A DNA stretch of 55,942 bases from an uncultured Anaerolineales bacterium. GTDB lineage: Bacteria > Chloroflexota > Anaerolineae > Anaerolineales > UBA11858. Within the stretch, counting starts at the first letter, position 1; every line of letters starts with the position of its first letter. The position numbers were made by a program, and so were the translations under genes. The stretch lies in the NCBI GenBank assembly GCA_964653835.1, contig CAZZFZ010000001.1, positions 19,746 through 75,687 of the forward strand. The letters are read 5' to 3'. A model generated the notes under the pieces. It was not told the origin of the DNA. It worked only from the letters and a program-made list of their open reading frames with translations, and made no database searches. Shown piece by piece: positions 9,456-46,358 of the stretch.

Positions 9456-10226
9456 TCAGGCGCGTTCTTCGGCGATGACCGGGTTGACCAGCTCGCCGAT
9501 TCCTTCGATGTGAACGCGCACTTCATCCCCGGGGTTGAGCGGGCTGACGCCGGCAGGCGTGCCGGTCAGGATCAGGTCGCCGGGTTCCAGGGTCATCACG
9601 GAAGAGATAAAAGCGATCAATTGCGGGATGGAGAAGACCATATCGCGGGTGGAGGCCATCTGGCGCATCTCGCCGTTGACGTGGCAGGTGACCAGTACAT
9701 CGGTTGGGTCGATGGCGGTTTCAATCCACGGCCCCAGCGGGCAGAAGGTATCGAAGCCTTTGCCGCGCGTCCACTGGCCGTCGCTCATTTGCAGGTCGCG
9801 TGCGGTGACATCGTTGGCGGCGGTGTAGCCCAGGATGTGGTTTTTGGCCTCTTCAGGGGCGATCCAGCGGCCGCGCTTGCTGATGACTACGGCCAGCTCG
9901 GCCTCGTGCTCCACCTGCTTGGATTGTGGCGGCAGCACGATGTCCTCGCCCGGCGCGATCACCGCCGAGGGGGGTTTGAGGAAGATCAGGGGGACCTTCG
10001 GCACCTCGGCCTGATGTTCGGCGGCGTGGGCGGCGTAGTTGCGGCCCACGCAGATGATTTTGCTTGGCTGCACCGGCGCGAGAAGACGAATCTCACTGAG
10101 AGGAAAGCGCAGTTCTCCTCGCTGATAAGCCCCGAAAATGTCGCCGTCAATCGGCCCGGCCTGATCTTCGAGCACCCAGCCGTAAGCGGCTTCGCCGTTG
10201 GAGGTTTGGTAACGAATGATGCGCAT
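9456..10226 (-). CDS. Fumarylacetoacetate hydrolase (FAH) family protein
   Basis: 'KIICVGRNYAAHAAE', 'PLIFLKP', 'EAELAVVI', 'GYT..NDVTARDLQ', 'KGFDTFCPLGPW', 'MVF....LIAFIS..MTL.PGDLILTGTP.GV'. Start chosen at 'MRIIRY' (ATG 10226); the track ORF extends to 10268. Confidence 0.9.
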   Translation of the reverse strand: MRIIRYQTSNGEAAYGWVLEDQAGPIDGDIFGAYQRGELRFPLSEIRLLAPVQPSKIICVGRNYAAHAAEHQAEVPKVPLIFLKPPSAVIAPGEDIVLPPQSKQVEHEAELAVVISKRGRWIAPEEAKNHILGYTAANDVTARDLQMSDGQWTRGKGFDTFCPLGPWIETAIDPTDVLVTCHVNGEMRQMASTRDMVFSIPQLIAFISSVMTLEPGDLILTGTPAGVSPLNPGDEVRVHIEGIGELVNPVIAEERA

Positions 10227-10331
10227 GGGTTTTGTACCTTTTTGGTGAATGCGTGTAAAGTCTATCACAAGATCGAAGAAGGGGGCAGATGTTCTCCGGA
10301 ATCTCTTCCGGTGCGTGGGCGCGGCGAGGCG

Positions 10332-11210
10332 TTAGGGGGCGAGCGGGAGGGTGACCAGCATGCCGGTCAGCGCGTCCAGGCCCGAGGAGTTTCCCCAGCC
10401 GAGGAGGTCATCCAGCGTCTTTTCTGTGGCGGTGCGTGTGCCCATCAAGGCGTCCAGCGCGTGGATCAGACGTTCGTCCGCCAGCCCGTCGCCGGCGCAG
10501 GCGATCAGCCCGGCGCTGATCGCCGTGGAGCGCGCCTGGATCATCTGGATTAGCTCTTCTTGGAGATTCTCCAGATCGCCTCTCAGGCCCAGGACATTGC
10601 CCCAGCGGTGGAGGGCGAGCATCAGCCCGAGGAGGAAATCGTCGCCCGATGGGGTGAGGCCCCCGCCGTAGCCGATTAACGGTACGGCCAGGGCAGGGAT
10701 TTGCTGCCAGCGTGCCTCGTGGAGGGCGGCGCGAATCGCCAGTACGGCTTCTTCCCGCGGATGCTGGCCTTTAGCCTGGCGTGAAAGTAAGGCGGGGATG
10801 ATGGGGGCAAACCCTCTCTCTGGTTTGCGGTGGTATGCCTGGATGGCAAAGCCAGGCCGAGGGGAGGGATGCGCCGCGAGAGGCGGTTCGGGGCACCAGA
10901 CCTGCGCCTGCCGCAGGTCAATTTGCAGCTTGACCTGTGAGAACAGGAGCCCCTCGGGTGCGCGTTCCCCTGCGGTTTCTGGAGTCAGGCGTGCGAGTTT
11001 GGGGGCGTCCTGGTGATCCAGGTTAAGCGTCAGCGGGCCGCGAAAACGTTCTGTCGAGAGGAAGACGATCTTCCGATTGGAGCATTGCAGGAACGCGCCG
11101 CGCGAAGTCGTCCCCACAACTTGAAGTGAGCGAGTCTGGTGCAGAATCTGCTGCGCTGCTGATCCGATGGAAGTGCACTGGAGTGAAGCGGTGGAGCTCG
11201 TTGGATTCAT
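10332..11210 (-). CDS. DUF2877 (E. coli YlbF-like) protein
   Basis: 292 aa. The motif 'LIGYGGGLTPSGDDFLLGLMLAL' and the overall size fit what I recall of DUF2877. It lies next to the FdrA and DUF1116 genes, its usual partners. Confidence 0.7.
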   Translation of the reverse strand: MNPTSSTASLQCTSIGSAAQQILHQTRSLQVVGTTSRGAFLQCSNRKIVFLSTERFRGPLTLNLDHQDAPKLARLTPETAGERAPEGLLFSQVKLQIDLRQAQVWCPEPPLAAHPSPRPGFAIQAYHRKPERGFAPIIPALLSRQAKGQHPREEAVLAIRAALHEARWQQIPALAVPLIGYGGGLTPSGDDFLLGLMLALHRWGNVLGLRGDLENLQEELIQMIQARSTAISAGLIACAGDGLADERLIHALDALMGTRTATEKTLDDLLGWGNSSGLDALTGMLVTLPLAP

Positions 11211-11221
11211 CCGTTCAGGTC

Positions 11222-11249
11222 TTGTGTAATTTTATGTGTGGATTATAAT
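11222..11249 (+). promoter_or_regulatory. Candidate sigma-A promoter in the divergent intergenic region
   Basis: TTGTGT (11222-11227), 16-nt spacer, TATAAT (11244-11249). A second TATAAT lies at 11268-11273. This would give a leader of about 130 nt to the CoA-transferase gene. Confidence 0.35.
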
Positions 11250-11385
11250 GGGGCGTGTGCATTGATGTATAATAACACCCCGAGGCGAAGCCTGACAGTC
11301 TGAGAACAGGCGGCGCCTCCCCCTAATTGACAATTGAGATGATGAGTCCCGTAAGCCGGATACTAGCGTTGGTGGAGGCGCGTTG

Positions 11386-12594
11386 ATGCAGGCATTGAGC
11401 GACATCCGGGTATTGGATCTGACCCGCGCCCTGGCGGGCCCGTTTTGTACGATGATGTTGGGGGATTTGGGCGCAGATGTGATCAAGGTGGAGCGCCCTG
11501 GCAAGGGGGACGAAAGTCGCGGCTGGGGGCCGCCGTTTGTGGGGGAATCTTATGAAGGCTATCCGGGCGAATCGGCGTATTTTCTGGCTATCAATCGCAA
11601 CAAGCGCAGTCTGACCGTAAACTTGAAATCTGCTGAAGGGCAGGAGATCATCCGCCGCCTGGTCAAAGAGGTGGATGTTTTTGTTGAGAACTTCCGCACC
11701 GGCGTGCTGGACGCCATGGGGCTGGGGTATGAGGACTTGCGCGCCGTCAACCCGCGCCTGGTGTATTGCTCGATCAGCGGCTATGGACGCACCGGCCCCT
11801 ATGCCAATCGCCCAGGGTATGACGCCATCTTGCAGGCCGAGGGCGGGCTGATGAGCATCACCGGCCCGGTGGAAGGGCCGCCTTCACGCGTGGGGATTCC
11901 CATCATTGATATCACCACAGGGATGTTCGCCGCCAGCGCCATTCTCGCCGCGCTGCGAGCGCGCGATCAGAGCGGCGAGGGGCAGCTTGTGGATATCTCG
12001 CTACTGGATACCAGTGTGGCGTTGCTGTCGAACGTGGCTTCGAATTACCTGGTGGGGGGGATTGAGCCGCCGCGGTTAGGCAACGCTCATCCCAATATCG
12101 CGCCCTATGGCGCCTTTCGGGCGCAGGATCGCTGGTTTGTGCTAGGCGCGGCCAATGAGCGGCAATGGGGGTTGTTGTGTGACGTACTTGGGCAGCCTGA
12201 GTTGAAGGATGACCCTCGCTTTGCCACAAATGGCGACCGCCTGGCCAACCGGGAGGCTCTGCACGATACGCTGAATCAGTTGTTTGCCACCCGCCCGGCG
12301 GAGGACTGGCTGGCGCAGCTGCGCCAGGGAGGTTTGCCATGCGGGCCGATCAACGCCATCCCGGATGTGTTTGCTCATCCACAGGCGGCAGCGCGCGACT
12401 TCGCTTTATCTGTTGAGCACCCCTCGGCTGGCGAGGTGAAGGTGGCGGGGTTCCCCTACAAGCTCTCCGAGACGCCAGCGACGATCCGACGCCCGCCGCC
12501 CAGGCTTGGCGAGCACACGGCCGAGGTGTTGGAGCAAATACTGGGCGTTGACTCTCAGAAACTGACACACTATCGCCAGCACGGCGTGGTGTGA
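11386..12594 (+). CDS. Family III CoA-transferase (CaiB/BaiF/Frc type)
   Basis: 'IRVLDLTRALAGPFCTMMLGDLGADVIKVERP..GD..R', 'N.NKRS...LK...G', 'DV.VENFR.GV...LG' and 'SISGYG..GP' are hallmark strings. GGAGG lies 8 nt before ATG 11386. Confidence 0.9.
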   Translation: MQALSDIRVLDLTRALAGPFCTMMLGDLGADVIKVERPGKGDESRGWGPPFVGESYEGYPGESAYFLAINRNKRSLTVNLKSAEGQEIIRRLVKEVDVFVENFRTGVLDAMGLGYEDLRAVNPRLVYCSISGYGRTGPYANRPGYDAILQAEGGLMSITGPVEGPPSRVGIPIIDITTGMFAASAILAALRARDQSGEGQLVDISLLDTSVALLSNVASNYLVGGIEPPRLGNAHPNIAPYGAFRAQDRWFVLGAANERQWGLLCDVLGQPELKDDPRFATNGDRLANREALHDTLNQLFATRPAEDWLAQLRQGGLPCGPINAIPDVFAHPQAAARDFALSVEHPSAGEVKVAGFPYKLSETPATIRRPPPRLGEHTAEVLEQILGVDSQKLTHYRQHGVV

Positions 12595-12628
12595 GCGCAT
12601 AAATCCATTCGTAAAAAAAGGAGCAGGC

Positions 12629-14350
12629 ATGGCTAAAATTGCTGTGGAGATTCGTTCGGGGGCGTATTACGATTCCGCTTTTTTGATGCAGTTGCAGGGA
12701 TTCCTGGCCGATCAGCCCGGGGTGTTGGACGTCGGCGTGGTGATGGGCACAGATGCGAACAAGGACGTGCTCGCTCAAAGCGGGTTGCTGGTGCACGAGG
12801 CGCAGGACGCCCTGGCGGACGACCTGGTGATCGTCATTAAGGGAGAGACGGAGGAAGCCGCTCAACTCGCCCTCAGTAAGGTGGATGAGTTAATCGCCTC
12901 GCGACGCAGCCGCGGCGGCGATGAAGATTACTTGCCCAAGACGGTTGCCTCGGCTGCAGCGATGCTCCCTGAAGCGCAGTGGGTGCTGGTTTCGGTGGCC
13001 GGGCGTTACGCCGCCGGCGTGGCGCGCCAGGCGTTGGCGCAGAATAAGCACGTTTTCCTTTATAGTGATAACGTCTCCGTGGAGGACGAGGTCGCCTTGA
13101 AACAGGAAGCCGCCAGCAAGGGGTTGCTGGTGATGGGGCCAGACTGCGGCACGGCGATCATTAACGGCATCGGTTTGGGGTTTGCCAACAAGGTGCGCGC
13201 CGGTTCTATTGGCATGGTGGCGGCTTCCGGGACCGGTTTGCAGCAGGTCTCGGTGCGTATCCATCAAATGGGCGGTGGGCTGACCCACGCCATCGGCACC
13301 GGCGGACGGGACGTCAAGGATGCTGTGGGGGCGATCACCGTGCGCCAGGGGTTGGATTTGCTCAGCCGAGACCCGGACACGAAAGTGATTGTGCTGGTCT
13401 CCAAGCCGCCTTCTAAGAAAGTCGCCGATGACCTGGTGCAGGCGGCGCGCAGGGCGGGCAAGCCGGTGGTGATTGACTTTATCGGCTATGCCACGGCGCT
13501 GCGTCAGGTGGAGAATATTTACTTCGCCACCACCTTTGACGAGGCTGCCCAGCTGGCGGTGGAACTATCTCAGGTAGATGCCGATTGGGGCGCGTCAGAT
13601 GTGTCGAAGTTTGCCCCGGAGCAAAAATACCTGCGTGGGCTGTTCTCGGGCGGCACACTGGCCTATGAGAGCCTGCTGATCCTGCATAATTATTTCCCCG
13701 GTGTGTATTCCAACATCCCCTTGAGTGAAGAGTATCGTCTGAAGGACTCGCTCGTCAGCCAGGAGCACACCCTGATTGACCTGGGCGAGGACGAGTTTAC
13801 CGTGGGGCGATTACACCCGATGATGGACAACGACCTGCGGGTGCGCCGCATCGCCAAAGAGGCCGCTGACCCTGAGACCGCGGTGATCCTGCTGGATGTG
13901 GTGCTGGGTTACGGCGCGCATGCAGACCCGGCCAGCGAACTGGCCCCGGCGATCGCCGCGGCCATCCAGACCGCCAAAGAAGCGGGGCGCCATCTGGAGG
14001 TTGTCGCCGTGGTTTCCGGTACGGATGAAGATCCGCAGGACATGGCTGCTCAAATTGAGGCGCTGGAGCAGGCTGGCGCGCGCGTTGAGACCAGCAACGA
14101 TCAGGCGGCCAATTATGTTGGACGATTGTTGAAGGCGTTGGAAGAGCGCGATGTCACGTCGGAAGAGTCCGCATCTGGCGTCGATCTGGCGACTCTCAAG
14201 CAACCGCTGGCGGCGATCAACGTCGGCCTCGAATCGTTCACTGAGAGCCTTGAGGCGCAGGGCGCACGAGTGGTTCATGTAGATTGGCGACCTCCGGCGC
14301 GCGGCAATGAAAAACTGGCGGGGATCCTGGAGCGCATGCGGAGCAAGTAA
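12629..14350 (+). CDS. fdrA: FdrA-like protein (succinyl-CoA-synthetase-like fold)
   Basis: 'GLLVMGPDCGTAIINGIGLGFANKV', 'GMVAASGTGLQQV', 'THAIGTGGRDV' and 'VLVSKPPS' parallel my recollection of E. coli FdrA. Good SD (AAGGAG) is present. Confidence 0.88.
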   Translation: MAKIAVEIRSGAYYDSAFLMQLQGFLADQPGVLDVGVVMGTDANKDVLAQSGLLVHEAQDALADDLVIVIKGETEEAAQLALSKVDELIASRRSRGGDEDYLPKTVASAAAMLPEAQWVLVSVAGRYAAGVARQALAQNKHVFLYSDNVSVEDEVALKQEAASKGLLVMGPDCGTAIINGIGLGFANKVRAGSIGMVAASGTGLQQVSVRIHQMGGGLTHAIGTGGRDVKDAVGAITVRQGLDLLSRDPDTKVIVLVSKPPSKKVADDLVQAARRAGKPVVIDFIGYATALRQVENIYFATTFDEAAQLAVELSQVDADWGASDVSKFAPEQKYLRGLFSGGTLAYESLLILHNYFPGVYSNIPLSEEYRLKDSLVSQEHTLIDLGEDEFTVGRLHPMMDNDLRVRRIAKEAADPETAVILLDVVLGYGAHADPASELAPAIAAAIQTAKEAGRHLEVVAVVSGTDEDPQDMAAQIEALEQAGARVETSNDQAANYVGRLLKALEERDVTSEESASGVDLATLKQPLAAINVGLESFTESLEAQGARVVHVDWRPPARGNEKLAGILERMRSK

Positions 14351-14374
14351 CACACAAAGTACGCGGAGGCGAAG

Positions 14375-15268
14375 ATGAAAGAATTTATTGGTGCATGTGT
14401 TCAAATTGCCATCACGCCGAACGATGTGAAAGCCAACGTGGAAAAGGGCGTTGCTTGGCTGGAGAAGGCCGCGCGCGAATACGAGGCCGAGCTGATCGCA
14501 TTCCCTGAGACGGTGACCACTGGCTATGACACCGGTTTGACCGCTGAAGGGTTATGGGATCTGGTGGATGAAGCCGGTGGCGAGATCAGCCGGGAGATCC
14601 AGAAAGCTGCTAAGTCCCTGGGGGTTCATGTGATCTGGCCTTCTTATCGCCGTGGCCCAAACCGCGGGGAGGTGTACAACTCCTCCATTTTGATCGGCCC
14701 GGACGGGGAGATCATCGGCATTTATGATAAGACACACCCCGCGCCATGGGAGCGCGTTCAGGGCGGCGGCTGGGCGACCATGGGGACCCGCGCCGACGTC
14801 TTTGAGACCGCGCTGGGGAATATCGGCATGATTATCTGTTACGATGGCGATTTCCCTGAACTTTCGCGCTTGCTGGCGATCCGGGGCGCGGAGGTGATTG
14901 TGCGTTCGGCAGCGCTGCAACGCAGTTACGATATCTGGTACATCACCAATTGCGCCCGCGCCTACGATAATCACGTCTACCTGATGGGGAGCAACCTGGT
15001 GGGGCCAGACGCAGCCGGGAATTATGGTTTTGGACACAGCATGATCGTCAACCCGATTGCCTGGCGGCTGGCGCAGGCGCGCGGCACGGAGGAGATCATC
15101 GCCGCCCGTCTCGACCCCGACCCGATGCGCTATATCACTTATGGCAGCAAAAGCCCGCAGACCTTCGATCATCTTGAAGATCGTAACCTGGAATTGTACG
15201 CAGAGATTCTCAAGGAGGCGCGCGCCCGCTTTGAACCGGGTAAACGTTTTCCTCAAGATAAAGCCTGA
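14375..15268 (+). CDS. Carbon-nitrogen hydrolase (nitrilase superfamily amidase)
   Basis: The Glu-Lys-Cys triad contexts are visible: 'LIAFPET', 'YDKTHP', 'MIICYDGDFPE'. 297 aa. Confidence 0.9.
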   Translation: MKEFIGACVQIAITPNDVKANVEKGVAWLEKAAREYEAELIAFPETVTTGYDTGLTAEGLWDLVDEAGGEISREIQKAAKSLGVHVIWPSYRRGPNRGEVYNSSILIGPDGEIIGIYDKTHPAPWERVQGGGWATMGTRADVFETALGNIGMIICYDGDFPELSRLLAIRGAEVIVRSAALQRSYDIWYITNCARAYDNHVYLMGSNLVGPDAAGNYGFGHSMIVNPIAWRLAQARGTEEIIAARLDPDPMRYITYGSKSPQTFDHLEDRNLELYAEILKEARARFEPGKRFPQDKA

Positions 15269-15294: not shown

Positions 15295-16536
15295 ATGGAT
15301 ATTGAAAAAGCCAATGCTGAAGCTGTAGGTCGCATGATGGAGGCGCGTCCTACGGTGGTGGGGATGGCGAAAGCCATTGATGTTGTCCCCGGGATGCGGG
15401 AAGACTTGCTGATGCACGCCGGCCCGCCGATCACCTGGGAGCGAGCTTCTGGCCCGATGAAGGGGGCGATTACCGGGGCGTTGATTTTTGAGGGCAAAGC
15501 CAAAAACATGGAAGAGGCCCAAAAGCTGGTCGAATCCGGCGAGATCAAGCTGGAGCCTTGCCATCACCATCAATCGGTGGGGCCGATGGCCGGAGTGACC
15601 TCTCCCCATATGTCGGTCTATATCCTCGAAAACAAAACGCATGGGAATTACACCTACTCCAACCTCAACGAGGGATATGGCAAGGTGCTGCGCTACGGGG
15701 CGTACAGCGAGGAAGTGATCGAAAAGCTGACGTGGATGGAAGAGGTCATGGCCCCTGTGCTGGGCAAAGCGATCGAATTGAGCGGTGGGATTGATATCCG
15801 ATCGCTGCTGGCTGAGGCTCTCCACATGGGTGACGAGGGGCACAACCGCAACAAGGCGGGTTCGGTGCTCTTCACCAAGGCGCTGGCACCTTATATCGTC
15901 AAGGCCACCGATGATCGCGAGGTCGCTTCCGAGATCATCAAGTTTATGGGCGACAACGCCCTGACGGTTCTCAATCCGGTGATGGCGGCCTGCAAGTCGA
16001 TGGTGGACGTGGCGCACAACGTGGAGGGCAGCACCATCGTCAGCGTGATGGCGCGCAACGGCACCGATTTTGGTATTCGCGTTTCGGGCCTCGGCGACCG
16101 CTGGTTCACCGCGCCGGTGGCTAAGCCTAAAGGGTTGTACTTCCCCGGCTTCACCGAGGACGACTCCAGTGGCGACATCGGCGACAGCACGATCACCGAG
16201 ACGGCGGGCATCGGCGGCTTCGCCATGGCGGCGGCCCCGGCGATCGTCACCTTCGTCAGCGGCACGCCCAAGGACGCCATCAATGCCACGCTGGAGATGT
16301 ATGAGATCACTTTCACCGAGCACAAGTTCTTCACCATCCCGCAGCTCGATTTCCGCGGTACGCCCACCGGCATTGATATCCGCAAGGTGGTTGAAACCGG
16401 CATAACGCCGCGCGTCAACACCGGCATCGCCCACAAAGACCCCGGCGTTGGCCAGGTCGGCGCGGGTCTGGTGCGCCCGCCGATGGAAATGTTCGAAGAG
16501 GCGTTGGTGGCCTTCGCGGAGAAGTATGGGTTTTAG
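15295..16536 (+). CDS. DUF1116 (E. coli YlbE-like) protein
   Basis: 'LLMHAGPPITWE...GPMKGA', 'PCHHHQSVGPMAGV', 'NLNEGYGKVLRYGAY', 'FGIRVSGLGDRWFTAP', 'ITETAGIGGFAM' and 'VETGITPRVNTGIAHK' closely parallel my recollection of YlbE. Confidence 0.88.
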   Translation: MDIEKANAEAVGRMMEARPTVVGMAKAIDVVPGMREDLLMHAGPPITWERASGPMKGAITGALIFEGKAKNMEEAQKLVESGEIKLEPCHHHQSVGPMAGVTSPHMSVYILENKTHGNYTYSNLNEGYGKVLRYGAYSEEVIEKLTWMEEVMAPVLGKAIELSGGIDIRSLLAEALHMGDEGHNRNKAGSVLFTKALAPYIVKATDDREVASEIIKFMGDNALTVLNPVMAACKSMVDVAHNVEGSTIVSVMARNGTDFGIRVSGLGDRWFTAPVAKPKGLYFPGFTEDDSSGDIGDSTITETAGIGGFAMAAAPAIVTFVSGTPKDAINATLEMYEITFTEHKFFTIPQLDFRGTPTGIDIRKVVETGITPRVNTGIAHKDPGVGQVGAGLVRPPMEMFEEALVAFAEKYGF

Positions 16537-16549: not shown

Positions 16550-16631
16550 AGGTAACTGGGTGATTAGGGATTAGGTGAATTCCTGCATTCCTAGTTACCT
16601 AATACCTGGTTGCCTTTTTGCCCAGTTACCT
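16550..16631 (+). promoter_or_regulatory. Two-tier inverted-repeat element built from AGGTAAC / GTTACCT units
   Basis: AGGTAACTGGG (16550-16560) pairs with CCCAGTTACCT (16621-16631), a perfect 11 bp. ATTAGGT (16570-16576) pairs with ACCTAAT (16597-16603). Extra AGGTAAC at 16542 and GTTACCT at 16594. Located in the 109-nt gap before the tandem-cyclase gene. Confidence 0.35.
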
Positions 16632-18324: not shown

Positions 18325-18368
18325 CGGCCTGACGGGTTTTGCTGACCTGTCAGGCCGTTTTGTCTCTT
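18325..18368 (+). terminator. Terminator-like hairpin abutting the next start codon
   Basis: CGGCCTGAC (18325-18333) pairs with GTCAGGCCG (18349-18357). It is followed by TTTTGTCTCTT and then ATG 18369. Confidence 0.45.
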
Positions 18369-20667: not shown

Positions 20668-20717
20668 CGCGTTCGGGCGCACCCCCCGCGCCCAGACGGT
20701 GTTATAAGGAGAGTACC

Positions 20718-26796: not shown

Positions 26797-26847
26797 GCTC
26801 AACGCTGAAATAACCACGCCGATCTTGACTTGACGTTACACGAAGAT

Positions 26848-32232: not shown

Positions 32233-32252
32233 CAGGAAGCAGAGGTGTTCAC

Positions 32253-33012: not shown

Positions 33013-33022
33013 GGAGTATTTT

Positions 33023-34147: not shown

Positions 34148-34186
34148 GTTTTGTGTATTCCTGATATAGAAGTAAGGAGCATTTTT

Positions 34187-37101: not shown

Positions 37102-37110
37102 CGGGCTTTT

Positions 37111-37151
37111 GGGCATGACCCAAAAAGGGGTCATGCCCTCTTTTTCTTTTT
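37111..37151 (+). terminator. Rho-independent terminator/attenuating stem-loop after binding-protein gene 2
   Basis: GGGCATGACCC, 6-nt loop, GGGTCATGCCC (a perfect 11 bp), followed by TCTTTTTCTTTTT. Confidence 0.75.
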
Positions 37152-37161
37152 GGGAGAACGT

Positions 37162-39721: not shown

Positions 39722-40644
39722 TCGTCGCTATGTTTATCGCCACGCTGACGGCGGCCACGCTTCGGGTCGCCACGCCGATTCTGCTGGCCGCCATCGGCGA
39801 GACGTTCGCCGAGCGCGCCGGTGTGCTCAACCTGGGTATTGAAGGGACGATGTTTCTGGGGGCGTTTGTGGGGTTTTACCTCGCCGATCTGATCGGTTCG
39901 TTGGAGACCGGTTTGCTGGCCGCCATGGTGATCGGGGTGTTGATGGGATTGTTGATGGCCTTCCTCTCCGTGACGCTGGGCGTCAATCAACACGTCTCCG
40001 GCCTGGGGATCACCTTGCTGGCGGGCGGCCTGGCGTTGTATGCCTTCCGCCTGAACTACGGCGGCAGCTCCACCCCGCCTTCGATTGAGCCGTTTGGGAA
40101 ATTCTCTCCCCTGGCAGGTGTGCCCGTGTTGGGGACCATCCTGGATCAATATGCGCTCACTTACATCGCCTTTCTGGTAGTGGTGCCGCTGGCCTGGTGG
40201 CTGCTCTATCGCACCAGCCTGGGGTTGAAAATCCGCGCCGTGGGCGAGAACCCCGAAGCGGCGGACGCCGCGGGAATCAACGTTTTTCGCGTTCGCTACC
40301 TCGCCCTGGGAATCGCGGGCGGTCTGATGGGCCTGGGCGGGGCGTTCCTCTCGCTGGCGCAGTTGGGCGCGTTTACCCACGGCATCATCGCCGGGCGCGG
40401 CTGGGTGGCTATCGCCCTGGTCATCTTCGGGAACTGGAATCCCGTCAAGGTGATGTGGGGCTCGCTGATCTTTGGGGGCACCTACGCGCTGCAATTGCGC
40501 CTCCAGGCTATGGGGCTGGAATTACCCATCCCCTATGAAACATTCCTGGCGCTCCCTTACATCGTCACCATTGTCGCACTGGTCATCGCCGGGCGGCAGG
40601 CTTCCTATCCGGCGGCGTTGTTGAAGCCTTATCGGCGGGAGTGA
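39718..40644 (+). CDS. ABC transporter permease, copy 2
   Basis: 308 aa polytopic protein. 'GE.FAERAGVLNLGIEG.M'. ATGA overlap with the previous gene. Confidence 0.9.
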   Translation: MIVAMFIATLTAATLRVATPILLAAIGETFAERAGVLNLGIEGTMFLGAFVGFYLADLIGSLETGLLAAMVIGVLMGLLMAFLSVTLGVNQHVSGLGITLLAGGLALYAFRLNYGGSSTPPSIEPFGKFSPLAGVPVLGTILDQYALTYIAFLVVVPLAWWLLYRTSLGLKIRAVGENPEAADAAGINVFRVRYLALGIAGGLMGLGGAFLSLAQLGAFTHGIIAGRGWVAIALVIFGNWNPVKVMWGSLIFGGTYALQLRLQAMGLELPIPYETFLALPYIVTIVALVIAGRQASYPAALLKPYRRE

Positions 40645-40694: not shown

Positions 40695-41939
40695 ATGGCA
40701 AATCAATTTGATCTTCTGGTAAAAAATGGTCGGCTTCGCGGGCAGCCCGAAAAGCGCGTCGATATCGGCATCGCCGAGGGGCGCATCGCGGTGATGGAGG
40801 AGAACCTGAGCGGGGAGGCGGCGGTGGTGCTGGATGCCGGTGGCAACCTGGTCACCGAGTCGTTTGTCAACACCCACCTGCACCTGTGCAAGGTTTACAC
40901 CCTGCCGATGATGGACGAACTCGCCCTCAAGGACTACCACGGCGCGGACATGGGCAAGGCGATGACCGCCATCGAGCTGGCGGCGCGGGTTAAGGAGAAT
41001 TACGACGAAGTCTGGATCATCAAGAACGTGCGCAAGGCCATCGCCCTCTCGGCGATCTACGGCGGCACGCACGTGCGCGCCTTCGCCGATGTGGATAGCA
41101 AAGCCAAGCTGGAAGGCGTCAAGGCGCTGTTGCGCGCCCGCGACGAATTCAAGGGGATCGTGGATATTCAGGTGGTGGCATTTGCCCAGGACGGGATCGT
41201 GCGAGAGCCGGGCGCGGAGGAATTGATGCGCCAGGCCATGGAGTTGGGCGCCGATGTGGTGGGCGGCATCCCCTGGATCGAATACACCGACGCCGACATC
41301 GCCGAGCACGTGCGCGTGTGCTTCGACCTCGCCGAGGAGTACGACAAGCCGGTTTCCATGCTGGTGGATGACGCCGGCGACTCTGGCCTGCGTTCGCTGG
41401 AGGTCATGGCGTTGGAGACGATCCAGCGCGGCTGGCAGGGGCGCTCGCTGGCGCACCATGCCCGCGCTATGGCGCTGTATCCCAAGCCGTATTTACAAAA
41501 ACTGGCCGCGCTGCTGAAGAAGGCTGAAATGGGCGTGGTCAGCGATCCGCACACCGGCCCGTTGCACGCCCGCGTGCGAGAGCTGCTGGAGGAGGGCGTG
41601 CTGGTCTGCCTGGGGATGGATGATATTTCCGATGCGTACTATCCCTATGGGCGCAACAACATGCTGGAGGTCGCTTTCCTGGTTTCGCACCTCTTGTGGA
41701 TGACCACCCGGCAGGATATGGAGACGCTGTACGATATGGTGACCACGAAGGCGGCGCAGTGCATCGGCCTGACTGATTTTGGCCTGCGGGTGGGCGCGCC
41801 TGCCAACCTGGTGGTGCTCGATCAGCCCGACGTTCTCGAGGCGCTGCGTTACCACGACGCGCCGAAGTATGTCATCAGCCACGGCAGGCTGGTGGATCAG
41901 GAGAAGATGCGTTCTCTAGTTAATACGCGTGAGTGGTAG
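40695..41939 (+). CDS. Amidohydrolase-superfamily deaminase/ring hydrolase (CodA / AtzC-like)
   Basis: 414 aa. 'DLLVKNGRL......VDIGI.EGRI' then the metal motif 'FVNTHLHL'. The ~410-aa length and layout match bacterial cytosine deaminase relatives. Confidence 0.85.
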   Translation: MANQFDLLVKNGRLRGQPEKRVDIGIAEGRIAVMEENLSGEAAVVLDAGGNLVTESFVNTHLHLCKVYTLPMMDELALKDYHGADMGKAMTAIELAARVKENYDEVWIIKNVRKAIALSAIYGGTHVRAFADVDSKAKLEGVKALLRARDEFKGIVDIQVVAFAQDGIVREPGAEELMRQAMELGADVVGGIPWIEYTDADIAEHVRVCFDLAEEYDKPVSMLVDDAGDSGLRSLEVMALETIQRGWQGRSLAHHARAMALYPKPYLQKLAALLKKAEMGVVSDPHTGPLHARVRELLEEGVLVCLGMDDISDAYYPYGRNNMLEVAFLVSHLLWMTTRQDMETLYDMVTTKAAQCIGLTDFGLRVGAPANLVVLDQPDVLEALRYHDAPKYVISHGRLVDQEKMRSLVNTREW

Positions 41940-42030: not shown

Positions 42031-42046
42031 TCTTTGTGGTGAATAA

Positions 42047-44833
42047 ATGGGAGCGTTTATAGTGGAGAAAATACAGGTTTCTTTAACGGTAAACGGCCAG
42101 CCGGTTAAGGCGGAAGTGCCCCCGAAGATGAACCTGATGAAGTTCTTGCGGCGCTACTTGGGGTTGACGGGCACGAAGAACGGTTGTGATAGCGGACATT
42201 GCGGCGCCTGCACGGTGATCGTCGATGGCAAGGCGCGCCGCGCCTGCCTGGTGCGCATGGAGAAGGCGGACGGCAGTCAGGTGGAGACCATCGAAGGGCT
42301 GGCCGCCAACGGGCGTTTGCACCCCCTGCAATACACCTTTGTGGAACACGACGCGGTGCAATGCGGCTATTGCACGCCAGGGATGATTATGGCCTCTAAA
42401 GCGCTGCTGGAGACCAACCCCGCGCCTACAGAGGAAGAGATCAAAACGTTTCTTAAACAGAACAATAATCTCTGCCGTTGCACCGGCTATTTGCAGATCT
42501 TTGACGCCGTGCGCTCTGCCGGGGAGATACTCGCCCGCGGGGAGACGCCACCCCCGATCGAGCCGGAGGGCTATCAGGCGCGCGCCAGTCGTTTGCGGCG
42601 CGATGCCCTTGGCCTGGTCACCGGCTCCACGCTGTTCAGCGACGACCTCAACCTGGAGGAAATGCTGTATGGGAAAATCCTCTGGGCGGCCTATCCCCAC
42701 GCCGAGATCGTCCGTATGGATACCTCGGCGGCGGAGGCGCTGCCCGGTGTGGTGCGCGTCATCACCGCCGACGACATCCCCGGCAAGAATCAGACGGGCA
42801 TCGTCGAGCGCGATCAGCCTGCTCTGGCGGCGGACAAAGTCCGCTATATCGGCGACCCGGTGGCGGTGGTCTTCGCCGAAAGCGAGGAGATCGCCGAGCA
42901 GGCGATCGGCCTGATCGAAGTGGATTACCGCGTGCTGCCTGGCGTGTTTACCCCCGAGGATGCCGCTCGCTCCGACGCGCCCAAGATTCACGAGAAGGGC
43001 AACCTGGCGCACCATGCCGAGATCATCCGCGGAGACGTTGACGCTGCCTTTGCGCAGTGCGCCGTGGTGGTGGAAGGCGATTTCACCACCCCCTTCATCG
43101 AGCACGCTTTCCTGGAGCCGGAATCCGGCGTCGCCTATCCCACCGATGACGGCGGCATCGTACTCAAGATGGGTACGCAGAGCGCCTTTGATGTGCGCAG
43201 CCAGCTGGCCGACATCCTGGCGATGCCCGAAGAGAAGATCCGCGTGGTGCAAATGCCCATGGGTGGGGCCTTCGGCGGCAAGGAGGACCCGATCATCGAG
43301 CAGCACCTGGCGCTGGGCGCGCTGCTCACCGGTCGCCCGGTGAAAATCACCCTGACGCGCCCGGAATCCCTGCGGGTGCACGCCAAACGTCACCCGGCGT
43401 GGATGCACTTCAAAACCGGCGCCGATGCCGAAGGGCGCTTGCTGGCGATTGAGGCAAAAATCACCCTGGATGCCGGTGCGTATATGTCCCTGAGTTTCGA
43501 CGTTCTGGAAAACACCCTGGTCTTCGCCGCCGGGCCGTATTTCGTCCCCAACCTGCGGCTGGAGGGCTGGGCCTGGCACACCAACAACGTGCTGGCAGGG
43601 GCGATGCGCGGCTTCGGCGTCAACCAGGTGGCCGTCGCCCTGGAACAGCAAATTGACGAGATCGCCCGCAGGCTGGGCATGGATCCTTTTGACATCCGTT
43701 TGCTCAACGGGCTGGATGTCGGCCTGCCCACCGCTGCCGATCACGTGCTCACTGAAGGCGTGGTCTCCATCAAAGAGACGGTTGAGGCCGCCCGTCAAGC
43801 GTTCCAGCAACTTGACCTGCCCGCGGTCAACGGGACGAAGAAGCTCGGCATCGGCGTGGCCTCGGCGGTCAAGAACATTGGCTTTGGGCACGGCCTGCCC
43901 GAAAAGGCGGGGGCCATCGCCGAACTGGCCAGCGACGGCAGCGTCACCCTGCGGCACAGCCAGCATGAATACGGCCAGGGGGCGCAGGTGGGCATCGCTC
44001 AACTGGTCTCGATGGAGCTGGGCGTGCCGATCGCTGATATCGAGGTCATCGGGCCGGACACCGCCCGCACACCGCCGACCGGACCGACCACCGCCTCGCG
44101 GCAGACCTTTATGACCGGCAACGCGGTGGTGATGGCTTGTCGCGCCCTCAAGGAAGAGGTGTTCAGCCGCGCCGCGGAACTGCTCGATCAGGAGCCAAGC
44201 CGCCTGCGCCTGGAGGGGAGCAGAGTGATCGACTCGGAGAGCGGGCGTTCGATCGAGCTGGCAGAGATCGGCGATCGCTTCGTTGTTGAGCGCGTTTACG
44301 AACCGTCGAAGTCGGCCCCATTGCTCGAAGGGGAACCCAGCCATTACGGTCAGCCAGATTTCGAATCCCGCCCGACGCACTGGTGCTATGCCTACAACAC
44401 CCAGGTGGCCGTGGTGACGGTGGACACGCGCACCGGTCAGGTGGACGTGCTCAAGGTGATCTCCGCCAACGACCTGGGCAACGTCATCAATCGGGCTGCG
44501 GTGCTGGGGCAAATCCACGGTGGGGTGATGATGGGGTTGGGTTACGCCCTTTCGGAGAAGTTCGTCGTCGAGCAAGGGTACAACCTCACCGATACGCTGC
44601 GCAAGTGTGGCGTGCCTGGCCCGGATATGGCCCCGGAGATCATCCCCGCGCTGGTGGAGGTGCCGCACCCTGAGGGGCCGCGCGGCGCTAAAGGCTTTGC
44701 CGAAGCGCCCTCGCTGGCGACCGCGCCGGCGATCCTCAACGCCATCTACGACGCCGTCGGCGTGCGCATTCGCGATCTGCCAGCCGAGAAAAAACGCGTG
44801 CTCGCCGCCTTGAAGGCTGCTGAATCGTCCTGA
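42047..44833 (+). CDS. Fused [2Fe-2S] + molybdopterin aldehyde-oxidoreductase-type Mo hydroxylase (Mop-like, no FAD domain)
   Basis: 928 aa. N-terminal 'CDSGHCGACTV', 'CGYCTPGM' and 'CRCTGY', then an XDH-family body with 'GAMRGFGVNQ' and 'AKGFAEAP'. The start could instead be GTG 42062. Confidence 0.92.
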   Translation: MGAFIVEKIQVSLTVNGQPVKAEVPPKMNLMKFLRRYLGLTGTKNGCDSGHCGACTVIVDGKARRACLVRMEKADGSQVETIEGLAANGRLHPLQYTFVEHDAVQCGYCTPGMIMASKALLETNPAPTEEEIKTFLKQNNNLCRCTGYLQIFDAVRSAGEILARGETPPPIEPEGYQARASRLRRDALGLVTGSTLFSDDLNLEEMLYGKILWAAYPHAEIVRMDTSAAEALPGVVRVITADDIPGKNQTGIVERDQPALAADKVRYIGDPVAVVFAESEEIAEQAIGLIEVDYRVLPGVFTPEDAARSDAPKIHEKGNLAHHAEIIRGDVDAAFAQCAVVVEGDFTTPFIEHAFLEPESGVAYPTDDGGIVLKMGTQSAFDVRSQLADILAMPEEKIRVVQMPMGGAFGGKEDPIIEQHLALGALLTGRPVKITLTRPESLRVHAKRHPAWMHFKTGADAEGRLLAIEAKITLDAGAYMSLSFDVLENTLVFAAGPYFVPNLRLEGWAWHTNNVLAGAMRGFGVNQVAVALEQQIDEIARRLGMDPFDIRLLNGLDVGLPTAADHVLTEGVVSIKETVEAARQAFQQLDLPAVNGTKKLGIGVASAVKNIGFGHGLPEKAGAIAELASDGSVTLRHSQHEYGQGAQVGIAQLVSMELGVPIADIEVIGPDTARTPPTGPTTASRQTFMTGNAVVMACRALKEEVFSRAAELLDQEPSRLRLEGSRVIDSESGRSIELAEIGDRFVVERVYEPSKSAPLLEGEPSHYGQPDFESRPTHWCYAYNTQVAVVTVDTRTGQVDVLKVISANDLGNVINRAAVLGQIHGGVMMGLGYALSEKFVVEQGYNLTDTLRKCGVPGPDMAPEIIPALVEVPHPEGPRGAKGFAEAPSLATAPAILNAIYDAVGVRIRDLPAEKKRVLAALKAAESS

Positions 44834-44885
44834 GCCACATGGTAAAATGGCGCAATTCAATCCATTTTGCCCTCAGGAGGTTCTC

Positions 44886-45320
44886 ATGGATAAGTTTATG
44901 CAGGCAGCCATTGAGGAGGCGCGCAAAGGTCAGCGCGCCGGCGGTATCCCCATTGGTTCGGTGCTGGTCAAGGATGATCAAATCGTCGGGCGGGGGCACA
45001 ACCGCCGCGTGCAGGATGGCGATCCGATCATGCATGCCGAGATCCATTGCCTGCAAAACGCTGGGCGCGTGGGTAGTTATGCGGGTACCACGCTGTACTC
45101 CACCCTGATGCCGTGCTACCTGTGCGCTGGCGCGGTGGTGCAGTTCGGCATCAAGAAAGTGATCGTTGGGGAGGGGGAGACCTTTGATGGCGCGGAGGAG
45201 TTCATGCGCGCCCACGGCGTGGAGGTCATCAACCTCGATCTGGATGAATGCAAGCAGATGATGTACGCTTTTATTGAAAACAATCCCAAACTGTGGTCCG
45301 AAGACATCGGCGAGCTATAA
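44886..45320 (+). CDS. CDA-fold zinc deaminase (yeast Fcy1-type cytosine deaminase / guanine deaminase-like)
   Basis: 'HAEIHCLQNAG' (HAE) and 'PCYLCAGAV' (PCxxC) zinc motifs. 'TLYSTLMPC' and 'IKKVIVGE' parallel Fcy1. AGGAGG precedes ATG 44886. Confidence 0.9.
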   Translation: MDKFMQAAIEEARKGQRAGGIPIGSVLVKDDQIVGRGHNRRVQDGDPIMHAEIHCLQNAGRVGSYAGTTLYSTLMPCYLCAGAVVQFGIKKVIVGEGETFDGAEEFMRAHGVEVINLDLDECKQMMYAFIENNPKLWSEDIGEL

Positions 45321-45323
45321 TCT

Positions 45324-46358
45324 ATGCGTGACATACTGCCGCAGATCCGTGAGTGGCTGGCGCGCGGCGAGCGCGTCGCCCTGGCGACGGTGATCCGTAC
45401 CTGGGGGTCGTCGCCGCGCCCGGTGGGGGCGCACATGGCGATCAACGCCGCGGGCGAGATCGCCGGTTCGGTCAGTGGCGGGTGTGTGGAAGGGGCAGTC
45501 GCCGAGGCGGGGCTGGAAGCGCTGCAAAGCGGTCGGCCACGTCTGTTGCATTTCGGCGTGGCGGATGAGACCGCCTGGTCGGTGGGGCTTTCCTGCGGCG
45601 GCCAGATTGATGTTTTTGTGTGTGAATTGTTGGGGGAGCAGGTGGATGGATGGGAGGCGCGGTTGCGCTCCGGGGATCGTTTCGCCGTCGCCACGCTGAT
45701 CCGCGGCCCGCAGGAATGGCTGGGGTACAGTTTCTTCCTGGATGGGGAGGGGATACCCTCTTCCGACCTTCCCGCGTTCCTGCAACCCTGGGATGATGCT
45801 GTTCCCGAGGGGAGGTTATCCCCGCATGGCGCGCAAGAGATTGATGTGCGGGGAGCGACGCTTTTCGTCAACTGGCAGGAGCCGCCGTTGAAGTTGATCG
45901 TCGTGGGCGGCGTACACATCGCCATCCCCCTGGTGACGCTGGCAAAAACGCTGGGCTACCATACCGTGGTGGTGGATCCGCGGCGTATGTTCGGCAGCGC
46001 GGCGCGCTTTCCCCGTGTGGATGAGTTAATCACGGCGTGGCCGCAGGACGCGCTGGAGCAGACAGGCATCACGGCGGGAACGGCGGTAGCCATGCTCACT
46101 CACGATCCCAAGATTGATGATCCGGCTTTGGTAGTCGCCTTGCGCAGCCCGGCGTTCTACGTCGGCGCGCTGGGTAGCCGGAAGACTCACCAGAAGCGGC
46201 GGGCGCGGCTGCTCAAGGCGGGGTTGACCACCGCCGAGCTCGACCGCCTGCACGCGCCCATCGGACTCGACCTGGGCGGGCGCGCCCCTGAGGAGATCGC
46301 CCTAGCCGTGATGGCCGAGATCGTCCAGGCGCGTTATCGAGGCGACGGCAGACGGTAG
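45324..46358 (+). CDS. xdhC: XdhC/CoxI-family molybdenum cofactor insertion chaperone
   Basis: 'ALATVIRTWGSSPRPVGAHMAI...G...GSVSGGCVE' at the N-terminus. C-terminal Rossmann-like 'LIVVGGVHIA' and 'AFYVGALGSR'. Confidence 0.9.
   Translation: MRDILPQIREWLARGERVALATVIRTWGSSPRPVGAHMAINAAGEIAGSVSGGCVEGAVAEAGLEALQSGRPRLLHFGVADETAWSVGLSCGGQIDVFVCELLGEQVDGWEARLRSGDRFAVATLIRGPQEWLGYSFFLDGEGIPSSDLPAFLQPWDDAVPEGRLSPHGAQEIDVRGATLFVNWQEPPLKLIVVGGVHIAIPLVTLAKTLGYHTVVVDPRRMFGSAARFPRVDELITAWPQDALEQTGITAGTAVAMLTHDPKIDDPALVVALRSPAFYVGALGSRKTHQKRRARLLKAGLTTAELDRLHAPIGLDLGGRAPEEIALAVMAEIVQARYRGDGRR

Follow-up and report, generated by a model that had tools for sequence, protein, structure and literature searches.

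The window analysed here is a stretch of 55,942 nucleotides from an uncultured Anaerolineales bacterium (Chloroflexota; contig CAZZFZ010000001.1, positions 19,746 to 75,687), and this report deals with a 37-kb block of about 32 genes at its positions 9456-46358, a candidate gene cluster for the degradation of pyrimidine-like N-heterocycles. Open reading frames (ORFs) were called across the whole window; all plausible genes were compared with Pfam and most of them also with NCBIfam, and sequence searches of the Protein Data Bank (PDB) were added. An earlier note on this DNA had listed the gene types of the block, and every one of them was found at its coordinates by these searches. The genes, together with a convergent one just beyond the block, are the following.

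9456-10268, minus strand: FAH-family hydrolase/decarboxylase, Rv2993c/HpaG-like (Pfam FAA_hydrolase, E 1e-75)
10332-11210, minus strand: AllH, DUF2877 (Pfam PF11392, 71.6 bits)
11383-12594, plus strand: family III CoA-transferase (Pfam CoA_transf_3, E 2.5e-145)
12629-14350, plus strand: FdrA/AllF (PF00549/PF02629; NCBIfam FdrA 556.5 bits, cut-off 433)
14375-15268, plus strand: C-N hydrolase, an amidase of the nitrilase superfamily (Pfam CN_hydrolase, E 2.6e-44)
15295-16536, plus strand: AllG, DUF1116 (Pfam PF06545, E 4.7e-96, 321 bits)
16646-18316, plus strand: two-domain cyclase-family (PF04199) protein of 556 aa, the double cyclase (Pfam Cyclase, two stretches)
18339-19238, plus strand: NmrA-like NAD(P)-binding protein (Pfam NmrA, E 4e-34)
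19301-23060, plus strand: Mo hydroxylase 1, with FAD subunit (19301-20194), 2Fe-2S subunit (20191-20667) and Mo subunit (20718-23060) (Pfam)
23101-23553, plus strand: CoxG-like accessory protein of Mo hydroxylase 1 (Pfam COXG, E 1e-24)
23875-25227, plus strand: UraA-type NCS2 nucleobase permease (NCBIfam uracil permease, 218 bits)
25435-30478, plus strand: BMP-family ABC importer 1, with binding protein, fused double ATPase and two permeases (Pfam Bmp, ABC_tran twice, BPD_transp_2 twice)
30682-34147, plus strand: Na+-translocating biotin-dependent (methyl)malonyl-CoA decarboxylase, with alpha (30682-32232), delta (32253-32570), biotin carrier (32545-33012) and beta (33023-34147) subunits (Pfam, NCBIfam)
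34151-35068, plus strand: single-domain cyclase-family metallohydrolase of 305 aa, the single cyclase (Pfam Cyclase, E 1.3e-30)
35157-35882, plus strand: GNAT-fold acyltransferase-like protein of 241 aa, labelled hyp241 (predicted fold; Pfam and NCBIfam without match)
36079-40644, plus strand: BMP-family ABC importer 2 (Pfam)
40695-41939, plus strand: CodA/AtzC-family amidohydrolase (Pfam Amidohydro_3)
42047-44833, plus strand: Mo hydroxylase 2, a fused 2Fe-2S and molybdopterin enzyme with no FAD domain (Pfam)
44847-45320, plus strand: Fcy1-like deaminase of the CDA fold (PDB yeast cytosine deaminase, 128 bits)
45324-46358, plus strand: XdhC-family Mo-cofactor insertion chaperone (Pfam XdhC_CoxI and XdhC_C; NCBIfam XdhC_rel_AOR, 198 bits)
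46412-48370, minus strand: acetyl-CoA-synthetase-like AMP ligase, convergent with the block (Pfam; NCBIfam acetate-CoA ligase 607 bits, cut-off 657)

The block had been described as co-directional, which is true of all its genes except those for the FAH-family protein and AllH; both of these have minus-strand orientation and point away from the CoA-transferase gene at 11383. In agreement with the earlier note, the Pfam and NCBIfam searches gave no AtzD/TrzD-family barbiturase, no carbamate kinase, no urease and no DNA-binding regulator for the block, and Rfam returned no match to a riboswitch or other RNA element. The G+C content is about 60% along the whole window, and the composition is without a break at either edge of the block.

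The linkage of these genes was followed through related loci, which are labelled by L-numbers. With the double cyclase as first anchor, one genome per species was scanned; relatives were found in 467 species genomes, and the best 80 loci, almost all of them from Chloroflexota, were retrieved together with flanks of at most 10 kb per side. The protein has 917 homologues at E <= 1e-10, with identities of 79-88% among the 120 listed. A tblastn of all window proteins against the related loci gave the neighbours, which were counted at distances of up to 10 kb from the anchor in those 45 loci that are 15 kb or longer. AllG was encoded near the double cyclase in 42 of these 45, the CoxL/Qor-like Mo subunit in 38, AllF in 36, and the 2Fe-2S and FAD subunits in 31 and 30, respectively, followed by CoxG (23), the CoA-transferase (16) and the C-N hydrolase (13); the NmrA-like gene (23 of the 45) lay mostly between the double cyclase and the Mo enzyme. 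The typical order is that of the window: CoA-transferase, AllF, C-N hydrolase, AllG, double cyclase, NmrA, FAD, FeS and Mo subunits, CoxG, and then UraA or a BMP importer, importer 1 following CoxG in 7-10 related loci and also in L164. AllH diverges on the opposite strand and flanks the cluster in many relatives. Only 1 of 83 related loci has the FAH gene near the anchor, and this gene is peripheral to the cluster.

Because the decarboxylase lies 12 kb from this anchor, past the flank limit, the single cyclase was used as a second anchor in metagenome contigs. Directly upstream of it, among the 51 metagenome loci whose sequence reached far enough upstream, were an AllG paralogue (20), the decarboxylase beta subunit (13) or the large subunit of a second Mo hydroxylase (11), and in 2 further loci a CodA-like gene separated it from the beta gene. 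The gap between the beta gene and the single cyclase is 3 bp in the window. The gene for the 241-aa protein follows the single cyclase directly in 23 of 64 loci, and in Promineifilaceae-type clusters the single cyclase adjoins the double one.

The remaining genes, those for XdhC and the GNAT-like protein among them, are joined to this core in differing orders, as seen for decarboxylase, CDA, CodA, XdhD-like and ABC genes in L019, L012, L079, L135, L158, L166 and L167. L019 has the decarboxylase upstream of the CoA-transferase; in L012 ABC permeases, small deaminase and double cyclase stand in a row, so that importer 2 adjoins the Fcy1-like gene and the double cyclase; L079 has Mo subunit, CodA and UraA in a row; L166 combines a second Mo hydroxylase, decarboxylase, single cyclase and 241-aa gene, bracketed by AllH; and L167 combines fused Mo enzyme, CodA, importer 2, single cyclase and 241-aa gene. 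Importer 2 adjoins the pair of cyclase and GNAT-like genes in L141 as well as in L167, and the CodA/AtzC-like gene lies within the clusters of L079, L084, L135, L158 and L167. L084 is syntenic with the window from 25 to 49 kb (CodA 84%, fused Mo enzyme 73%, small deaminase 72%, XdhC, and AMP ligase 76% identity); an orthologue of the fused Mo enzyme is present in L167 as well. The convergent AMP ligase occupies the same place after XdhC in L084 and L085 (74-76% identity) and possibly belongs with the cluster. A look-up of the exact double-cyclase sequence returned no record, so the collection searched does not include the source contig itself. The closest relatives are the metagenome-assembled genome (MAG) GCA_015485245.1 (Anaerolineales S139_47, WFTY01), with a 97% identical double cyclase and, on another contig, a 98% identical 241-aa protein, and an ENA metagenome scaffold that is syntenic with the window and likewise has a 98% identical 241-aa protein.

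The block is, with high probability, a conserved cluster and not a chance neighbourhood. Conservation and the repeated re-association of sub-blocks in different orders lead us to regard it as one functionally linked catabolic unit, since re-association of this kind is the pattern expected of one pathway. The central claim of the earlier note, which had proposed such a unit, is thereby supported: core genes recur near the double cyclase, the sub-blocks are conserved and rejoined across dozens of loci, and the independent distribution of sub-clusters that would speak against the claim is the opposite of what was seen. Chance adjacency of a nucleobase salvage and transport set, a housekeeping methylmalonyl-CoA decarboxylase of propionate fermentation and a separate Mo-enzyme operon is hardly credible by comparison. 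The sub-blocks are indeed modular, with Promineifilaceae-type clusters lacking the decarboxylase and the second hydroxylase within 10 kb, and several internal promoter-like sites suggest separate transcription units; L070 and L075, neither of which gives a functional hint, hold the double cyclase without the rest of the cluster. Against this stand the same sub-blocks rejoining in many orders over dozens of loci, and a decarboxylase operon that has core genes on both sides, ends 3 bp before the single cyclase and reappears upstream of the CoA-transferase in L019. Chance adjacency is largely refuted by these observations.

Several proteins of the block are indicative of a pyrimidine substrate. 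In PDB searches the small deaminase aligned over its full length (residues 16-156) with yeast cytosine deaminase Fcy1 at 128 bits, compared with 75 bits for TadA and 46 bits for guanine deaminase, and the HAE and PCxxC (PCYLC) motifs and the C-terminal WSEDIGE lid are present. Its sequence matches that of an Fcy1-type cytosine deaminase, the predicted function, and a guanine deaminase was ruled out by the scores. The CodA/AtzC-like amidohydrolase, with 195 bits to AtzC and 156-161 bits to CodA in the PDB, is predicted to deaminate an amino-pyrimidine or amino-triazine type ring. The permease was far closer to UraA (3QE7, 154 bits) than to UapA (32 bits) and its 218 bits with the NCBIfam equivalog of uracil permeases lie under the cut-off of 477; its Glu, His and Glu residues align with the uracil ligands E241, H245 and E290 of UraA. 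We see a pyrimidine signal in the block because an Fcy1-like deaminase, a UraA-like permease with the Glu/His/Glu set and a member of the CodA/AtzC family are present together.

The large subunit of Mo hydroxylase 1 was matched almost equally by CoxL (8UEM, 514 bits) and quinoline 2-oxidoreductase (1T3Q, 512 bits) in the PDB, and its score with NCBIfam carbon monoxide dehydrogenase (CODH) group 5 was 901 bits, under the cut-off of 950. Its active-site loop reads VRGAGR where 8UEM has ACSFR, and the copper-binding cysteine of CODH (VAYRCSFR in CoxL) is missing. An aerobic CO dehydrogenase is ruled out by this loop, and because of it we assign the enzyme to the N-heterocycle type of hydroxylases. 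Its three-subunit FAD/2Fe-2S/Mo architecture is that of the Mo/FAD/FeS uracil-thymine dehydrogenase, a likeness from which the substrate itself is not readable. Mo hydroxylase 2 has the domain layout of the aldehyde oxidoreductase (MOP) of Desulfovibrio gigas (458 bits in the PDB) and scored 727 bits with the NCBIfam model of Se-dependent xanthine dehydrogenase (XDH; cut-off 830). It keeps the equivalents of Gln767, Glu802 and Glu1261 (bovine XDH numbering) and has Asn at Arg880, for which reason it belongs neither with typical aldehyde oxidoreductases nor with canonical xanthine dehydrogenases. In 45 related loci there is a second, XdhA/4-HBCR-like Mo hydroxylase with three subunits.

The similarity of hydroxylase 1 to quinoline 2-oxidoreductase and 6-hydroxypseudooxynicotine dehydrogenase, as near as that to CoxL, would also suit a different N-heterocycle, for instance a nicotinate-type pyridine carboxylate, hydantoin/parabanate, pterin/lumazine or a substituted or xenobiotic pyrimidine or triazine, with the AllFGH homologue performing other chemistry. 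Two hydroxylases and two hydrolases fit two hydroxylations or two rings; the nearest relative of the CodA-like protein is AtzC of triazine degradation, and the NmrA-like and GNAT-like genes of the window, like the thiolase/DUF35 genes of its relatives, are not accounted for by a route from uracil. A ring with a single nitrogen, in turn, gives no ureide for AllFGH, the non-glutaconyl type of the carboxyltransferase described below speaks against a C5 product from a pyridine ring, an AtzD/TrzD gene is lacking, and the Fcy1-like and UraA-like proteins with their conserved ligand residues point to pyrimidines of the size of cytosine and uracil. On balance we consider such a substrate unlikely, with some chance still of being the right one.

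For the ring-opening step of pyrimidine degradation, the cyclase-family proteins are the candidates. The earlier note had counted three cyclase-family hydrolase domains; all three are present, and the metal-binding motif is kept in two of them only. It is intact in the single cyclase (HLGTHLDGEIH) and in the C-domain of the double cyclase (HLATHMDGEKH), with only conservative changes from the HxGTHxDxPxH-type motif of PF04199 and with the His/His/Asp/His metal ligands retained, and it is degenerate and lost in the N-domain (NNGTHLVGPRAFH). Isatin hydrolase is a cyclic amidohydrolase within PF04199 (PMC6117287). As isatin hydrolase is a member of this family and the metal motif survives in two of the three domains, we recognise a ring-opening signal, with the double cyclase as candidate ring-opening amidohydrolase and its C-domain as the putative catalytic part.

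The 241-aa protein encoded after the single cyclase had no Pfam or NCBIfam family match. It has 1271 homologues, the best 120 of which are at least 75% identical to it, and the Prokaryotic Genome Annotation Pipeline (PGAP) sometimes names them N-acetyltransferase. In a Foldseek search of the PDB with its AlphaFold2 model, which is of moderate confidence (predicted local distance difference test, pLDDT, 65; predicted template modelling score, pTM, 0.72), all 50 listed matches were GNAT-type or putative GNAT-type acyltransferases (best E 2e-5). The model suggests a divergent GNAT-fold acyltransferase-like protein that is a conserved partner of the single cyclase.

ORFs of the related loci that were unaccounted for by window proteins were clustered, and further genes came to light around this pair. 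About 20 related loci (L140, positions 8489-10724; L088, L089, L113, L128, L141, L153 and others) encode a paralogue of the 241-aa protein with 34-43% identity, followed by a thiolase and a DUF35 protein. The thiolase is of archaeal type (NCBIfam PRK06064, 422 bits), and DUF35 denotes a Zn-ribbon/OB protein. This triad of GNAT-like protein, thiolase and DUF35 comes directly after the single cyclase in relatives and is absent from the window.

Genes of the block may serve the breakdown of an acylurea. With FdrA/AllF, DUF1116/AllG and DUF2877/AllH all three subunit families of AllFGH are present, and the gene for the C-N hydrolase, which has the Glu-Lys-Cys triad, lies between those for AllF and AllG. 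In the version of the cluster from Promineifilaceae and Ardenticatenaceae (12 loci) an amidase-signature enzyme (PF01425) encoded upstream of AllF takes the place of the C-N hydrolase, so that two non-homologous amidases alternate next to AllF across loci. The complete AllFGH and the two alternating amidases beside AllF are the reason to speak of an acylurea/amide signal. No allK (AA_kinase) or allantoin-pathway family was found among the window ORFs scanned, and none recurs in the related loci.

In many relatives (L085, L086, L093, L094, L096, L115, L121, L128, L140, L141 and others) the single cyclase is directly preceded by a second AllF/AllG pair, paralogous to that of the window with 45-57% identity (about 45% for AllF and about 56% for AllG). 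Some genomes may run two parallel reactions of the AllFGH type.

The purified enzyme of Escherichia coli catalyses the reversible conversion of oxalurate and phosphate to oxamate and carbamoyl phosphate (PMC11326118), and oxalurate, its sole demonstrated substrate, would suggest purine (xanthine/urate) catabolism: Mo enzymes would form urate from hypoxanthine/xanthine and cyclases oxalurate by ring opening, AllFGH would release oxamate and carbamoyl phosphate, the amidase would yield oxalate, and the CoA-transferase would activate it. The formyl-CoA:oxalate and YfdE enzymes (299 and 279 bits) belong to the family III CoA-transferases, hydroxylase 2 has retained Glu802 as in XDH and is nearest to the Se-dependent XDH model, and BMP importers occur together with allFGHK in clusters read as purine-derived (PMC12625717). 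The Pfam scan, in contrast, revealed no uricase, 5-hydroxyisourate (HIU) hydrolase, 2-oxo-4-hydroxy-4-carboxy-5-ureidoimidazoline (OHCU) decarboxylase, allantoinase, allantoate or ureidoglycolate enzyme and no oxalyl-CoA decarboxylase, and the embedded biotin (methyl)malonyl-CoA decarboxylase would be without a task on oxalyl-CoA. The deaminase is Fcy1-like and not guanine deaminase-like (128 vs 46 bits), the permease resembles UraA and not UapA (154 vs 32 bits), hydroxylase 2 is without an equivalent of Arg880, and the ligase that replaces the CoA-transferase in some relatives is nearest to malonyl-CoA synthase. Purine catabolism appears quite improbable in the light of this comparison.

Malonate is, on the pyrimidine reading, the unit to be activated and decarboxylated. 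The best PDB match of the CoA-transferase was human succinate-hydroxymethylglutarate (dicarboxylate) CoA-transferase (SUGCT, 397 bits). Five loci (L001, L021, L036, L062 and L082) have no CoA-transferase and carry instead, directly after the Mo subunit, an AMP ligase that scores best with the NCBIfam model of malonyl-CoA synthase (528.7 bits, cut-off 558). The carboxyltransferase alpha subunit of the decarboxylase (PF01039, 620 bits) was closest in the PDB to propionyl-CoA carboxylase beta (PCC-beta, 1VRG, 665 bits) and Sulfolobus tokodaii MmdA (638 bits) and distant from GcdA (116 bits), and is predicted to be of the PCC-beta/MmdA type, not the glutaconyl type; its TIGR01117 score of 766 bits is below the subfamily cut-off of 999. 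At the specificity position Asp422 of PccB it has Ile, the residue of carboxyltransferases that also accept acetyl-/malonyl-CoA. The beta (TIGR01109, 465 bits, cut-off 191) and delta (PF04277, 31 bits, cut-off 27) subunits pass their models, and the biotin carrier (PF00364) has the AMKM biotinylation motif at residue 119. We derive a malonate signal from the replacement of the CoA-transferase by a ligase like malonyl-CoA synthase, the PCC-beta/MmdA-like carboxyltransferase and the Ile at the Asp422 position. The SUGCT-like CoA-transferase had also raised the hypothesis of a pyridine ring degraded via glutaconyl-CoA, which was rejected on the carboxyltransferase scores.

Taken as a whole, the comparisons suggest a multi-operon cluster for the oxygen-independent degradation of an N-heterocycle of the oxo-pyrimidine type to malonyl-CoA/acetyl-CoA; cytosine and uracil are the most likely substrates, and thymine is a possible one. 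We give this reading a probability of about 0.5; family membership and gene linkage are what the data contain, and substrates and chemical steps are all predicted from them. Uptake would proceed via the UraA-type permease and the two BMP ABC importers, followed by deamination of cytosine to uracil by the Fcy1-like enzyme and of a related aminopyrimidine by the CodA/AtzC-like one. A Mo hydroxylase would then convert uracil or thymine to (5-methyl)barbiturate by water-dependent hydroxylation at C6, and the cyclase-family metallohydrolases, replacing an AtzD-type barbiturase, would open the cyclic imide to ureido(methyl)malonate. By analogy with the action of the E. coli enzyme on oxalurate, AllFGH may cleave this N-acylurea phosphorolytically to (methyl)malonamate and carbamoyl phosphate. 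The C-N hydrolase is expected to release NH3 from malonamate, and the family III CoA-transferase to convert malonate or methylmalonate to the CoA ester. In the last step the membrane biotin decarboxylase would split malonyl-CoA to acetyl-CoA and CO2 (or act on methylmalonyl-CoA), coupled to Na+ export. The earlier note had followed the same logic from pyrimidine via barbiturate and malonate to (methyl)malonyl-CoA; the comparisons of deaminase, permease, replacement enzymes and carboxyltransferase strengthen it, and surplus enzymes and genes left out of the route weaken it.

A number of observations weigh against this proposal. The route requires one hydroxylase and one ring hydrolase, whereas conservation extends to two Mo enzymes and to two catalytic cyclase domains, and the NmrA-like, FAH and GNAT-like proteins and the thiolase/DUF35 pair of the relatives fall outside it. 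The substrates of the Mo enzymes are not deducible from the sequences, hydroxylase 1 being CoxL/Qor-like and hydroxylase 2 being without an equivalent of Arg880, and AllFGH enzymes have been characterised with oxalurate and oxamate alone. For the carbamoyl phosphate that the route produces the block holds no kinase, and among the unannotated families of the related loci none of the size of carbamate kinase (about 300 aa) occurs repeatedly within 10 kb. The CodA/AtzC-like protein reaches 260 bits with the NCBIfam cytosine deaminase subfamily (cut-off 438), and the malonyl-CoA-synthase-like ligase and the MmdA-like subunit as well score under curated NCBIfam cut-offs. BMP importers usually carry nucleosides, and the block is without a nucleosidase or phosphorylase gene.

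Part of the surplus might find a place in the pathway. The second hydroxylase and the second catalytic cyclase might serve thymine as opposed to uracil, or form heteromers. More speculatively, the GNAT-like partner of the single cyclase might move the malonyl group of the acylurea straight to CoA and so feed the adjacent decarboxylase. A wider proposal, which we put forward tentatively and think doubtful as it stands, is that of an oxygen-independent pyrimidine fermentation widespread in Anaerolineae of sediment and sludge, in which the cyclases would act as non-AtzD barbiturases and AllFGH as a ureidomalonate phosphorylase, and energy would be conserved twice, as substrate-level ATP from carbamoyl phosphate and as a Na+ gradient from the decarboxylase.

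Known routes of pyrimidine breakdown are the reductive Pyd, oxidative barbiturate, Rut and URC pathways. The oxidative one, from uracil/thymine dehydrogenase via barbiturase to ureidomalonase, is said to go back to Hayaishi and Kornberg in 1952, and its enzymes in Rhodococcus erythropolis were reportedly studied by Soong et al.; the subunits of the purified uracil-thymine dehydrogenase are similar in size to those of hydroxylase 1 with about 85, 32 and 17 kDa. To our knowledge barbiturase and ureidomalonase, both from an aerobe, are the only known genes of this route. The pathway and its enzyme names are given in PMC4051656 and PMC3758960. It is the closest known system, sharing with the proposed steps Mo/FAD/FeS hydroxylation to barbiturate, hydrolytic opening to ureidomalonate and the release of a malonate unit. 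However, the cluster lacks an AtzD-family barbiturase, and the window is without an amidase-signature ureidomalonase and a urease; a PF01425 amidase is seen in some relatives. Furthermore, the ureide is predicted to be split by AllFGH phosphorolysis and not by hydrolysis to urea, the setting is anaerobic, and the oxidative pathway has no counterpart to the amide, CoA-activation and Na+-pumping decarboxylation steps. With its defining barbiturase and ureidomalonase missing, the cluster should not be counted as a member of that pathway.

Other systems resemble parts of the cluster. The MmdABCDE complex of Veillonella and Propionigenium is a Na+-translocating methylmalonyl-CoA decarboxylase, and Malonomonas and Sporomusa ferment malonate via malonyl-CoA. 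The cluster has the same set of carboxyltransferase, membrane anchor, biotin carrier and beta subunit, with predicted activation by CoA-transferase before decarboxylation, but its decarboxylase is embedded in N-heterocycle genes, almost contiguous with a cyclase-family gene, and its alpha subunit remains below the TIGR01117 cut-off. With the oxamic transcarbamylase AllFGH of E. coli (PMC11326118) it shares the three subunit families, an AllF that passes the FdrA cut-off and, as proposed here, the phosphorolysis of an N-acylurea. Unlike that system, in which oxamate is a dead end, it has no adjacent allK or allB/C/D/E and carries an amidase gene between allF and allG; ureidomalonate, the substrate proposed here, is one carbon longer, and many relatives possess the paralogous AllF/AllG pair.

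The reductive uric acid pathway (XdhD-YgfM, YgfK, SsnA, HyuA, YgeW, YgeY and YgeX), cluster variants of which have been noted in Chloroflexota, is likewise an oxygen-independent nucleobase cluster with an XDH-family enzyme and hydrolytic ring and ureide cleavage (PMC12507026). The window is without SsnA, HyuA, YgeW/UacY, YgeY, YgeX, YgfK/UacX and the F420 luciferase-like reductase, and with these markers absent that pathway was rejected. Clusters of allFGHK, biuH, FAH and bmpA-nupABC genes, with FAH genes beside allFGHK, were described in MAGs of nitrifiers (PMC12625717). They share with the cluster the co-localisation of AllFGH with a BMP-type ABC importer and a FAH-family gene; in contrast to it, they carry biuret/triuret hydrolases and a carbamate kinase, and no Mo hydroxylases, cyclase hydrolases or biotin decarboxylase have been reported from them.

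The gene combination was not found described in the full-text literature, in which most subscription journals lie outside coverage, so that a prior description is possible. We know of no described pyrimidine route that couples ring degradation to the formation of an ion gradient. If the pyrimidine reading is true, an anaerobic form of the oxidative pyrimidine pathway would for the first time have a genetic basis, and new functions would follow for AllFGH outside allantoin metabolism, for PF04199 'cyclases' and for CoxL-like 'form II' Mo enzymes. The cluster would also suggest how nucleic-acid debris in sediments and sludge supplies abundant, hard-to-culture Anaerolineae with carbon, nitrogen and energy. 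Being compact and conserved, the cluster is open to direct test by heterologous expression.

Some smaller features were observed within the block. The 12-mer AATACCTGGTTG occurs in exactly two copies in the window (16601-16612 and 23823-23834), which precede the genes for the double cyclase and the UraA-type permease, respectively; the chance expectation is 0.12, and two matches were reached in 1 of 100 shuffles. The first copy lies inside a 109-bp spacer rich in GGTAAC/GTTACC inverted repeats, and the 12-mer could be an operator for a regulator encoded elsewhere. Between the CoxG and permease genes, a 32-codon ORF (23622-23720, plus strand) encodes the hydrophobic peptide MSGGVLSPVQFTLVFLSIMVVILLVAYVANMG and is followed by a hairpin and T-run; possible roles are those of a small membrane subunit or of a leader. 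In importer 2, the longest ORF of the first permease has a 152-nt overlap with the ATPase gene (38528-38679), and its real start codon probably lies further downstream.

In Promineifilaceae-type loci, genes for a '23S rRNA-intervening-sequence protein' (13 loci) and PDDEXK_3 (6 loci) sit between cluster genes, such small insertions lying at 8010-8477 and 11718-11939 in L001; they look like selfish or mobile insertions inside the operon. An Ardenticatenaceae MAG (L075, positions 7263-14376) has the double cyclase alone, with ThiD-ThiE, a ThiO-like oxidase and ThiC alongside on the opposite strand, and in L003 and L065 an NMT1/THI5-type ABC importer is encoded beside the cluster. These genes give a weak hint of a link to thiamine-pyrimidine metabolism; the thiamine pyrimidine as substrate of the cluster, considered for the NMT1-type transporter of L003 and the thi genes of L075, was dropped, as a 2-methylpyrimidine cannot give an acylurea.

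Upstream of the block, a PsuG-like gene (7065-8060, plus strand; pseudouridine-5'-phosphate glycosidase, Indigoidine_A E 7e-119) lies at a distance of 1.4 kb. PsuG releases uracil. No PsuK-like kinase was found in 8060-9450, a region that holds only a Thr/Pro-repeat membrane protein, and none of 83 related loci has a PsuG-like gene near the cluster. That membrane protein (8362-9438, minus strand; 358 aa), which has a membrane anchor at its N-terminus and, at either end, long repeats rich in Thr and Pro, gave no Pfam or NCBIfam match and is unrelated to the block. Still further upstream are genes for a 1495-aa LVIVD-repeat beta-propeller protein (1044-5531, plus strand) and for a 447-aa protein with no family match (5538-6881, plus strand). 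At the other end of the window, where no restriction partner is visible up to its last position, the gene at 54619-55773 (minus strand) encodes an N6/N4 DNA methyltransferase fused to a RAMA (restriction enzyme adenine methylase associated) domain.

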